DNA of 63,355 bases, filler included, from Olpidium bornovanus S191 (lineage: Eukaryota > Fungi > Olpidiomycota): the NCBI GenBank assembly GCA_017911155.1. It is 25 parts of 25 records of this genome, joined end to end, with 100 filler letters (N's around TTAATTAATTAA, not from the genome) between each part and the next. Parts side by side here need not be neighbours in the genome. Positions count along the whole stretch, not along the records: positions 27,413 to 30,667 come from JAEFCI010001105.1; 24 more parts are not named here. One strand, 5' to 3'. This document shows, piece by piece, positions 27,201-30,157 of the stretch. Each line of letters opens with the position of its first letter. Positions within the stretch are counted from its first letter, which is position 1. Made by a program: the position numbers and the translations under genes. The notes beneath the pieces were generated by a model. That model made no database searches. It had not been told where the DNA came from and was given only the letters and a program-made list of their open reading frames with translations.

Positions 27201-27414
27201 CCTCGCGGACGCCTTCTCGAGCCTTGAATCTGGCCAGGCAAACCGTTTTTTTTTCAAAGTGACGGCGTCCGCCCCCCCCCCCCCCCCCCCCCCCCGGGGG
27301 GGGTGAAAAAAANNNNNNNNNNNNNNNNNNNNNNNNNNNNNNNNNNNNNNNNNNNNTTAATTAATTAANNNNNNNNNNNNNNNNNNNNNNNNNNNNNNNN
27401 NNNNNNNNNNNNAC

Positions 27415-27585
27415 AACTTCGAAGTCGAACGAGTCGTCGGACGACGTCGACGCCAAGGACGAACCCAATACCTCGTCCGCTGGAAGGGCTACGACGCGTC
27501 CGAGGACACGTGGGAACCGGCCGAACATCTCCGTGGTGCTCGACAAGCTGTGCGCGAGTTCCTCGCGCAGAACCCGTCGTCCTAG
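27415..27585 (+). mobile_element. Chromodomain at a 5'-truncated ORF end, most likely the C-terminus of a Ty3/gypsy chromovirus Pol/integrase
   Basis: NFEVERVVGRRRRQGRTQYLVRWKGYDASEDTWEPAEHLRGARQAVREFLAQNPSS*, followed by a repetitive UTR and a G-run (PPT-like). Confidence 0.8.
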
Positions 27586-27876
27586 ACAGGACACAAAACT
27601 GTCTACTTCTCACAACCGACGTTCGTCCTAGACAGGACGTAAAACTGTCTAAGCAGAACCGACGTCCTGGATAAGACATAAAAACTTTCCACACCATCGA
27701 CCGGCGTTCTAGACAAGACGTAAAACTGCCTTCGGCGACCGACCGCGCCGAGACAGGGACCCGGGTAGGTCCTTAAAACTGCCTGCGGCTCCCCAACAAG
27801 GAGCCGTGACTGGCGACCTCGGCAGGTCGTAAAACTGCCCCAACTCGAAGCGACTTCGGCAGGTCGAAAAACTGCC
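27579..27876 (+). ncRNA. Array of 7 predicted H-type pseudoknot units in the element 3' UTR (cis-RNA structure, predicted)
   Basis: Units at 27579, 27624, 27664, 27705, 27757, 27814 and 27851 share the layout S1-S2-S1'-(T)AAAAC-S2' with compensatory changes (see finding). Confidence 0.65.
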
Positions 27877-28394
27877 TCGACCACTCAGGCGGCAACGGGG
27901 GGAGCAAACGTTTTCTGCTAGTCGGAACGCCCCCTTCCCCCCTGTGTCGTCGAACAAACGAGACTGCGGCAGAGCCCAATGGCTCCTCCCTCCTGGGCTG
28001 CCTGGAGACAGCAGGTACTCCAGGCGTCGACCGCCCGGCACTCCAGGGGTGGGAGAACGACGCGCCGCGACAAGACTTTCCGCGGGCGGAAAGTACGGGG
28101 GGTGTGCTGTAGCACTGTGCTGCAGCACGGCCCTCAAACCGCCCGTCGATCGACCTCACGCAAGGCAGGCGGCGGGCGAAGGCGGGCGCAGGGCAAAGGG
28201 CGAGAGGGCAAAGGGCGGCGGAAGAAGGGCGCAGAGCAAAGGGTGAGAGGCGGTCGAAGGGCGGAAGCGGCGGCGGGATCGAGGGGATGGCCCCCGAACC
28301 TGGTGGTCGACCAATAGAATAGACCCCCTCGAAGCCCGCCAATCGAAGAGCGCTTCCCCCCTTCCCCCCCCCCCCCCCCCCCCCCCCCCCAACC

Positions 28395-28443
<49 letters not shown>

Positions 28444-28471
28444 TTCACGCACAACCCTTTTTGCAGCGGCG

Positions 28472-30157
28472 ATGGGCCACGCGATCCCCACGCTGGAGTT
28501 TGTCAAAAGGGCGTCTTCCCGCCACTGGATCACGCTCATGATGCCGGGCCCCTTCATCGACACGCTGCTCGAGCGCGGGATCTTTCCAGGCAGAGGGCGA
28601 CCGCACGCCGGAGCGAACCGCCGGACGGACAGACGGCGTCGATTTTGTTCCGAGTCGTCTCCGCCTCGTGCGCATCGAGGGGCTGCCCCCGTTCCCCGAA
28701 GACCCGCGCGGGGCACTTGGCCTGATAATCAACAGCCTCAGGGCTTACCGGCCGGTGCTGGAGAAGCACTTTCGGAAAGCGTCGGAACAGTTCGGCTGGG
28801 GCGCGGAAGCACCTGCGGCGGGCGGCGACACGGACGACAGCGCGAAAGCCGCCGGCTGGTGGCCGACGCCCCCTACGGCTCTCGCGGCAAACTTTTTCTG
28901 CATTGACCCCCTGATCAGGGCCGCGCGCACCGTGCCTGCCCTGAAGGAGCTGCCGACGTTTACGCTCTACCCCAGTAACCGGCGGGCCATCTTCGACTTA
29001 TTCAAAGACCATCCAGACGACCCCGGTGAAGAAGAGCTTCCGGAGATGCCGGACAACGTCGCGGACCCAAAAGCCGATAAGCGCGAATTCATCGAGGGGA
29101 CCAACTTACTCAAACCGAGAAGCTTTCCGAAAGCCTTGATGCTGTTGTTCTCGATGATCTCCAGGGGCACCAAGCAGAGCAACGGCTGCCTGGTCGACAC
29201 GTTCGAGGAACTGGAGCAGGCGGCGGACAACGACTGCCCTAATTCGCTCCCGTCGTTGCCGCTGTATTGCGTGGGCCCGCTGTGCGCGTGGGACATGCGC
29301 GAAGAAGCGCAGGCGCGCGCTGGTATTTCTGCCGAGCACCAGGCCATCATGTGCTGGTTGGACGCGCAGCCGCCGCGCTCGGTCATCTACGTCGCCTTCG
29401 GGAGCATTTTCTTCCTCGAAGAGGACCAGATTTGCCAGCTCGAGGCGGCCATGTTCGCCTCCGGCCACCCGTTCCTGTGGTCGCTGCGATTAAAGAATCA
29501 GCAGCCGCTGCTGTCGCCGGAAGCTCGGTCGAACCGCAAGTTCCCGGACGCCACTTCCATAGAGGTGCCCGGGGCAAAAGGGAAATCGCCGGCGTGTTCG
29601 TCGACTGGTGCCCACACCGCGCCGTCCTCGTCCACCCCGCCATCGGCGGCTTCATCAGCCACTGCGGTACGTGCGCTCAAAACTGCGCGGAAGGCAGAGC
29701 GAAAAGAGGCCGGGGGGAAACTAACATCCCGCCGCTCAAATCTTCGCCGTGCCCCTTCCCCCCGGTCTCAAACCGCCGACGACGACAAACCGCCGCCCGG
29801 ACCTCCCCCCCCCCAAAAAAAAAAAAAAATCGCGCAGGGTGGAACAGCTCGATCGAGTCCATCGCAGCCGGCGTGCCGATGATCGCCTGGCCCCTCGGCG
29901 CCGAGCAGCACGTCAACGGCCAGTACCTGGTGGACCGCAAGCTTGCCGTGCCGATGCGCCAAACCCAGCAGTTTGGCCGCACGGTCCCCGCCGACGAGAT
30001 CACGTCCGCCGTGCGCGAGCTTTTCGAAGGTCGGCCAGGAGGGGCCGGGTCACGGACGCGCGGCGAAGTGGCTCGGGACTTGTCGGAGAAAGCGAGGCGC
30101 GCCATCGGCCCCGGAGGGCCCAGCAGGGCAAATTGGGAAAAGTTCCCTGACTTCTGA
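28472..30157 (+). CDS. Family-1 UDP-glycosyltransferase with plant-type PSPG box; first exon missing, at least one apparent frameshift
   Basis: GHAIP catalytic His; LVDTFEELE; LYCVGPL; WLDAQPPRSVIYVAFGS; PSPG WCPHRAVLVHPAIGGFISHCG|WNSSIESIAAGVPMIAWPLGAEQ (intron 29667-29837); GGPSRANWEKF. Frame shifts near 29575-29585 and 28590-28632. Confidence 0.92.

Follow-up and report, generated by a model that had tools for sequence, protein, structure and literature searches.

The 3' UTR of a chromodomain LTR retrotransposon from the fungus Olpidium bornovanus S191 carries seven tandem units of a small predicted H-type pseudoknot, placed between the stop codon of the element and its inferred 3' LTR. 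Both stems of the units covary, and the units match the viral motif coremin (xrRNA-C) in stem 1, in the ends of the loop and in the spacer. Comparison of sequences supports the prediction that this array of ~28-nt pseudoknots is a selected cis-acting RNA of the chromovirus 3' UTR. By analogy with coremin, the array may well be a tandem roadblock for the exoribonuclease Xrn1, made of Watson-Crick coremin variants with 8-nt loops, a reading to which we give about an even chance.

The window, i.e., the whole stretch of DNA analysed here (63,355 nt), consists of 25 pieces joined by runs of N, and real neighbourhood is assured within pieces but not across the gaps; the one gap inspected has a linker with stops in all frames inside it. 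Elsewhere in the window (20210-20419) a 70-nt unit is repeated three times head-to-tail with 93-96% identity. According to the cited section of PMC7865070, the published O. bornovanus assembly was binned out of non-axenic material. The contig piece with the array begins at position 27413 within an ORF whose final 56 residues form a chromodomain (Pfam Chromo, E 7e-18), in agreement with the chromovirus-like ORF of the original prediction. The nearest proteins, the gene call at this locus (98%) and a second copy (88%), carry the NCBI name Olpidium bornovanus, and the 88%-identical copy (P0003) has a Tf2-1-like SH3 domain followed by a chromodomain. An integrase-type SH3 domain followed by a chromodomain, with a purine tract and an LTR downstream, are features of chromoviruses; the reverse transcriptase and the integrase core are located outside the contig. 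By these sequence features the element is a chromodomain LTR retrotransposon (chromovirus), which is present in multiple copies, several diverged ones being visible among the contigs of seven public runs aligned to the region.

The aligned contigs show the pattern expected at an LTR border, with the purine tract reaching 28102, TG from 28103 and unrelated flanks before 28116. Loose ends of unrelated sequence occur before 28116/28125, and the summed depth of run X9 rises sharply at 28117. A 13-nt duplication (28103-28128) is confined to this copy, the 13 nt at 28111 being missing from other contigs in three runs. Given this placement of the copies, the purine tract and the LTR borders, the array occupies the first 300 nt of a ~520-nt 3' UTR between the stop codon and the purine tract/LTR (Table 1). 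The structure of the stretch between the array and the LTR is not unusual (z -0.91). The public gene call P0004 (window 27415-30157) joins the chromodomain to a UDP-glycosyltransferase gene (28440-30157, Pfam UDPGT) and is spliced over the array, which is probably an annotation artefact. The inferred LTR lies just 5' of a pyrimidine tract and a CAG resembling a 3' splice site, and the element may occupy an intron of the UDP-glycosyltransferase gene.

Table 1. Features of the pseudoknot array and its surroundings, in window coordinates
Feature	Position	Strand	Details
3' end of element ORF (chromodomain)	27415..27585	+	5' end cut by contig start at 27413; TAG at 27583-27585
Unit 1	27578..27605	+	5' strand of stem 2 includes the stop codon; 3/4 + 6/6 pairs
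Unit 2	27624..27651	+	4/4 + 6/6 pairs; stem 1 is that of BNYVV coremin hp1 (numbering of PMC6546385)
Unit 3	27662..27691	+	stem 2 with 5/6 pairs (one U-U); mismatch in stem 1 here, C-G in other copies
Unit 4	27705..27732	+	weakened here: closing pair U-G, but C-G in 3/3 covering runs
5-bp hairpin directly 3' of unit 4, candidate coremin hp2	27733..27750	+	-7.3 kcal/mol
Unit 5	27756..27785	+	5-bp stem 1; stem 2 6/6, two G-U pairs
7-bp hairpin directly 3' of unit 5, candidate coremin hp2	27786..27806	+	-11.9 kcal/mol; one double compensatory change among copies
Unit 6	27814..27841	+	4/4 pairs + 4-bp stem 2
Unit 7	27851..27878	+	4/4 pairs + 4-bp stem 2; loop starts with T in this copy, with C in 4/4 runs
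Likely polypurine tract, purine-rich with six G at its 3' end	28085..28102	+	from sequence; directly 5' of inferred LTR start
Start of inferred 3' LTR, TG at 28103	28103..28350	+	from contig tables

The sequence contains all seven units as originally described, and likewise the TAG within unit 1 and the 7-bp hairpin. A relaxed descriptor, composed after the units had been seen, identified seven plus-strand units in the 63-kb window, every one of them between 27578 and 27878, and no minus-strand unit; among 2000 dinucleotide shuffles of 27571-28102, 1996 had no unit, four had one and none had two. Even with pseudoknots not modelled, the array folds better than 100 out of 100 shuffles (z -3.9). 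A search of the array with Rfam gave no real match, its six matches being at chance level. From unit to unit, both stems show changes in both of their strands (C-G to G-C, U-A to A-U, A-U to G-C and U-A to C-G), and bases without variation in the viral family described below stay fixed, while the spacers between units are not conserved. Units 1, 3, 4 and 7 of this copy contain mismatches or wobbles, for which other copies have the fitting base in units 3, 4 and 7, and only four pairs are formed in stem 2 of units 6 and 7.

The position of the stop codon bears on the readthrough signal that had been among the original guesses. Pseudoknots for readthrough or -1 frameshifting lie 5-9 nt behind a stop or slippery site and are followed by an open frame. 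The guess is not supported, since unit 1 itself contains the stop and the frame ends 18 codons further on. With a slippery site added upstream, coremin-type knots can stimulate -1 frameshifting in vitro, according to the cited sections of the coremin papers, but no slippery heptamer was seen just upstream of unit 1, and in the viral set the frame past the stop is likewise short (median 7 codons among 79 units). We consider a readthrough or frameshift signal hardly credible.

The pairing register was derived from an alignment of 104 units (five from the window and 99 viral). Stem 1 has 4 bp and stem 2 has 6 bp in this register, along with a single C, one free base and a WAAAAC loop of 6 nt, and 90.8% of the cells are paired. 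The two stems and the A-rich loop thus stand as first drawn, whereas only four out of 104 aligned units form the inner, fifth pair of stem 1, and a seventh pair of stem 2 likewise in 4/104. A G occupies the free position in five of the seven window units, so an extra pair is possible there. Changes on both sides were observed in six of ten pairs, and the covariation score of the 104 units was reached by none of 500 shuffles, a control that ignores kinship. The claim that both stems covary is borne out by this score and by the two-sided changes. All 104 units keep the W-W' pair of stem 1 complementary, as A-U in 53 and as U-A in 51. The patterns used to collect viral units were built from the window units, so that the 5' halves are partly forced, and relatives were counted more than once. 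With the 3' strand of stem 2 unforced, at least five of its six positions are paired in 88 out of 99 distinct viral units, compared to 3-5 out of 99 in slid controls; in a set of 100 distinct viral units, collected with the 3' strand absent from the pattern, at least four of six are paired in 99 and at least five in 89. Both flanking C's remain C in 11/11 units once freed in the pattern, and the junction base, which is free in viral units, is T in 48, A in 36, C in 14 and G in one. Wobbles in the stems are G-U in 93 cases and A-C in 25, an excess partly forced by the patterns, which points to sense-strand RNA.

Judging from these pattern searches, the predicted ~28-nt fold is widespread in phages and present in some RNA viruses. 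A wider pattern gave 23 distinct units, of which 21 have at least four of six unforced positions paired, and with the junction base freed 123 loci were found in 10 out of 64 parts of the viral collection, the search tool estimating ~800 stretches overall. A half-pattern intended as a negative control returned 131 loci; the unspecified first stem was present in exact register in three of 117 distinct contexts, and in all three an open frame has its stop 5-6 nt upstream of the unit. The narrow pattern was absent from two samples of bacterial genomes (0/151 and 0/201), and a slightly wider one was found in two of five genomes reached via matches. BLAST searches with short units pointed to phages of Mycobacterium, Arthrobacter, Bacillus, Lactobacillus, cyanobacteria, Rhodobacteraceae and Moraxella, as well as to a microvirus. 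Among 11 matched records, chosen for having no feature under the match (weaker matches lying inside genes were left out), all matches are intergenic and a full unit was confirmed in three. Several loci with a reverse-strand coding look (L158, L172, L185, L188, L206 and L207, perhaps also L171/L240) are not counted as evidence, L207 and L240 still being within the viral set of 145 units. A two-unit pattern gave two chance-like matches in viral contigs. The sole tandem cases among the 145 units are the phage loci L359 and L360, with two or three coremin-like units within 100 nt, one of the two having a spacer nearer the plant-virus form.

The viral units have a preferred position relative to genes. 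Among 143 viral and bacterial units with enough flank (pairing-filtered), 51 are located 4-8 nt past a stop codon, compared to five of 136 in the antisense control, and 79 lie within 15 nt of a stop closing at least 50 open codons. No unit lies 0-3 nt from the stop, and 36 are found at 5-6 nt, which is about the distance from the ribosomal A site to the mRNA entry. This spacing suggests that the knots could act on ribosomes, halting those that scan or slide past the stop and thereby keeping the 3' UTR clear, with its purine tract and packaging or strand-transfer signals, or altering termination or nonsense-mediated decay. Such a role would be compatible with an Xrn1 roadblock and agrees with the cited sections of PMC10520033 and PMC10321173, which describe coremin as a block to scanning ribosomes and as a frameshift stimulator, in the case of the WCC type even without a second hairpin. 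Against it, the phage spacing is not reproduced in the array, because unit 1 contains the stop, with unit 2 beginning 38 nt beyond it; one contact with the ribosome needs fewer than seven copies, and the spacing may merely be the shortest gap that leaves the knot folded. We regard this role as unlikely.

Transfer RNA genes provide a second context. A tRNA is found within 40 nt downstream of 14 of the 143 units, at 2-4 nt in nine of them, and no unit was found near an antisense tRNA; at L237, L247, L250, L256, L264, L295, L321, L333, L379, L393 and L395 the knot is within or just 5' of phage tRNA arrays, L250 having an additional sub-threshold match to twister-P1. Processing of such a tRNA would put the knot at a new 3' end, and with the knot close behind the upstream stop codon this would fit a barrier against 3'-to-5' decay, shielding coding RNA from the exosome after deadenylation (from PNPase or RNase R in bacteria), or a substitute for poly(A) like the tobamovirus upstream pseudoknots. 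The knot is also near the contig end in the RNA-virus contigs L143, L331 and L340. However, the tRNA acceptor stem 2-4 nt downstream could equally be the second hairpin of an Xrn-type block, the array has no match to the tobamovirus pseudoknot families of Rfam, and resistance to 3'-to-5' decay is not reported for coremin in the cited sections of the coremin papers. A 3'-to-5' barrier appears quite unlikely to us. The genes upstream of viral units do not tell the direction of protection, since no single family prevails among them: 25 out of 61 have a PHROG match, to head proteins, Hsp20, polymerase, HNH or unknown proteins.

Among RNA-virus contigs (L143, L145, L262/L268, L310 and L331) the knot is located 3' of the stop of an ORF for RdRp or a capsid-like protein. 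Three short viral contigs contain an RNA resembling the GIR1/lariat-capping ribozyme (L262:963-1167, L268:1493-1697 and L276:255-459; Rfam E 1e-9 to 5e-12, below the gathering score) directly 3' of a tombus-like RdRp ORF (Pfam-tested in L262 and L268), with the knot occupying the place of P2.1 in the GIR1 model. L310 has an RdRp, the knot and then a similar but truncated downstream stretch. The presence of the knot in the retroelement would reflect either viral capture or convergence, 28 nt being too short to tell these apart. The wide distribution also bears on a repeated binding site for a protein, such as Gag nucleocapsid or an export or localisation factor recognising the knot. Seven copies in a 3' UTR would suit such a site, and the structured export element of MusD, which contains a pseudoknot (as described in the cited part of PMC12786077), is a precedent; yet a single protein of a retroelement or fungus hardly explains why RNA viruses and the phages of many bacterial groups share this knot with its sequence constraints, and we hold this explanation to be improbable.

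Variation among the copies was taken from the contig tables of public runs, X9 having no coverage over the chromodomain and unit 1. Among other Olpidium-like copies there are 17 distinct stem substitutions, of which 11 keep or improve pairing and six break a pair, and eight further substitutions hit unpaired places. The only double compensatory change between copies is in the 27786-27806 hairpin (three runs). The copy-level evidence is therefore modest. In contigs of X1, X3 and X7 the stems of this hairpin differ from those at 27786-27806, and a loop with CGACAA is kept within the element family. The general motif does not include a conserved YGACAA hairpin loop, which was found in two of 145 viral units compared to three in the control. 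A neutral tandem repeat, in which a knot captured or arisen once was duplicated without selection, would fit the broken pairs, the lone compensatory change, which is in the hairpin, the partial decay of this copy and the number and order of units, which differ among contigs. It does not explain stems that change on both sides between units while virally invariant bases stay fixed next to unconserved spacers, and we consider it highly improbable. The knot motif was absent from six distant integrase/chromodomain loci (28-40% identity), and protein-led scans found two viral and six metagenome loci (28-45% identity), with no close copy among them and none with the motif, several having less than 500 nt downstream.

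A nuclease roadblock, originally one guess among several, is now the favoured reading, with the coremin match in stem 1, loop ends and spacer in its favour and two coremin rules failed. By analogy with coremin and luteoviral-type pseudoknots, a single C would bridge stem 2 and the A-rich loop would pack on stem 1, the longer Watson-Crick stem 2 possibly standing in for the position-2 G and the second hairpin of coremin. After decapping, Xrn1 would digest the element RNA as far as the first intact knot and stall at the foot of stem 1, leaving 3' fragments that contain the array, the purine tract and U3-R as stable non-coding RNAs. These fragments may tie up Xrn1 or blunt silencing, similar to BNYVV ncRNA3, which inhibits Xrn1 in vitro (cited part of PMC5869530, where coremin is also described as active in yeast via Xrn1), and tandem units would give redundancy, as in tandem viral coremins.

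Several observations speak against an Xrn1 roadblock. The position-2 G is present in 0/7 units, a downstream hairpin in 2/7, six of the 17 stem changes among copies break pairs, and the motif is found in 0/6 of the distant integrase/chromodomain loci. Moraxella phages are among the BLAST matches, and most of the Moraxella group is not known to have RNase J. Phage units sit 4-8 nt past stops and 2-4 nt short of tRNAs, a placement no less compatible with a role linked to ribosomes or protecting upstream RNA. Moreover, several ordinary H-type pseudoknots of similar size failed to stall Xrn1 notwithstanding an added hairpin, as described in the cited section of PMC10321173.

In a fuller version of the roadblock reading, the retrotransposon would make non-coding RNAs similar to flavivirus sfRNAs by means of seven Xrn1 roadblocks in a row, which would make it the first retroelement with an array of exoribonuclease-resistant RNA; the knot would be a portable roadblock common to phages, RNA viruses and a fungal retroelement, and its covariation would supply the register missing for the unsolved coremin structure. 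We propose this version tentatively and judge it possible rather than probable. If true, it would extend nuclease-resistant RNAs to chromosomal mobile elements, in the kingdom where coremin stalls Xrn1 (in yeast, according to the same part of PMC5869530). About 100 natural variants with a fully Watson-Crick second stem define the paired and the invariant bases and offer a tiny, easily synthesised target for probing and structure determination. The array also lends itself to testing whether a longer pseudoknot stem can take the place of the second hairpin, since a hairpin follows two of its seven naturally varied units and is missing after the other five.

The structure had been put forward as undescribed, which applies to the array but not to the fold. 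The latter shares its core with coremin/xrRNA-C and xrRNA-WCC, as these are presented in the cited sections of PMC6546385, PMC10520033 and PMC10321173, and resembles the 5' half of GP20-b. A retrotransposon with such a tandem array did not turn up in the literature: no description of coremin or of tandem pseudoknots in retrotransposons, of the motif strings or of a counterpart in phages was encountered in a search of texts that included few subscription papers, with figures and supplements outside its scope. The new part is the seven-fold array in a eukaryotic retroelement, in a host kingdom that has the enzyme blocked by coremin, together with numerous naturally covarying variants of a motif whose structure is unsolved.

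Among known RNA elements, GP20-b (Rfam RF03003) has the same layout in the 5' half of its Rfam consensus. One phage unit with the next fold aligns to the whole GP20-b model at 26.2 bits (E 4.6e-4; gathering score 36.2), and the window array has no Rfam match to it. GP20-b is tied to GP20 genes and its function is given as unknown in the cited part of PMC10690425. The array shares with tobamoviruses the tandem pseudoknots located 3' of the stop codon, and no tobamovirus pseudoknot family of Rfam matched it. The tobamovirus upstream pseudoknot domain, luteoviral frameshift pseudoknots and tmRNA PK1 are all compact H-type folds with an A-rich loop along stem 1. As to tmRNA PK1, no tmRNA was found at six out of six look-alike loci, and none by Rfam at the window. 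The ENE and dENE, RNA-stabilising structures in the 3' regions of plant and fungal transposon transcripts, clamp the poly(A) tail in a triple helix; they differ from the array in having an unrelated fold and in acting at the opposite end of decay. Luteoviral-type knots differ in that BWYV-type ones do not stall Xrn1, according to the cited sections of the xrRNA papers, and the array lacks a recoding context.

The closest relatives of the array are the coremin-type xrRNAs, which the cited sections of PMC10520033 and PMC10321173 report from RNA viruses only and state to be without a solved structure. As described in those of PMC6546385, coremin hp1 is formed by C1-G12, G2-C11, U3-A10 and C4-G9, the bottom pair being dispensable, position 5 is C or U only, U14A occurs naturally, the loop ends in A-D and the spacer A16-A20 is essential. 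Coremins with 7- and 8-nt loops still stalled Xrn1, whereas tetra- and hexaloops (YGAD and YGNNAD) needed a G at loop position 2 (PMC10520033, same sections). Coremin is found at 3' UTR starts, over stop codons, in tandem and in mycoviruses (PMC6546385, PMC10520033). A descriptor made from the coremin rules minus the position-2 G gave six matches on the plus strand of the window, all in the array, and three on the minus strand.

The array shares with coremin/xrRNA-C, known from BNYVV RNA3, cucumoviruses and mycoviruses, a first stem of 3-5 bp closed by a pyrimidine-purine pair, which is C-G in six of seven units (U-G in unit 4 of this copy, C-G in other copies), and stem 1 of unit 2 is identical to BNYVV coremin hp1 (PMC6546385). 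The loop begins with Y and ends in A-D in all seven window units (the last base being C in 14/99 viral units), the spacer core A16-A17-C18-U19 (AAACU core) is present in 7/7, and the position at the start of the 3' UTR over the stop codon and the tandem copies are common to both. By contrast, no unit has a G at loop position 2 (U in six and C in one), a rule that was derived for 4- and 6-nt loops while the array loops are 8-nt. Spacer position 20, which is A in 13% of the viral set, is G in six units and U in unit 3, and pairs with the loop. The units also have a Watson-Crick second stem of 4-6 bp, occur in seven copies and reside in a retrotransposon, not in an RNA virus. The hairpin directly downstream that both coremin types need follows units 4 and 5 only (2/7), and in the viral set it was found in 22 out of 144 units compared to 29 in shuffled sequences.

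Similar to xrRNA-WCC, for which the cited sections of PMC10321173 report that a Watson-Crick loop-spacer pairing, G8-C18 with A7-U19, stalls Xrn1, the units have a canonical loop-spacer pseudoknot, with A7-U19 in 7/7 and a possible G8-C18 in five of seven, and this Watson-Crick stem comprises 4-6 pairs per unit with family-wide covariation. The natural xrRNA-WCC example SPlV5 sits 8 nt past its last ORF (PMC10321173). As defined there, xrRNA-WCC differs in having a 4-nt loop, a 3-bp second stem, a required G instead of C as the bridging base and a need for hp2 in Xrn1 resistance, whereas the units have C (six) or U (one) at the bridging base and an 8-nt loop. Since they lack the position-2 G and A20 and only units 4 and 5 are followed by a hairpin, the units fall outside xrRNA-C and xrRNA-WCC as these classes are defined. 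By analogy, they would represent a longer-looped Watson-Crick variant of coremin, most likely working alike.
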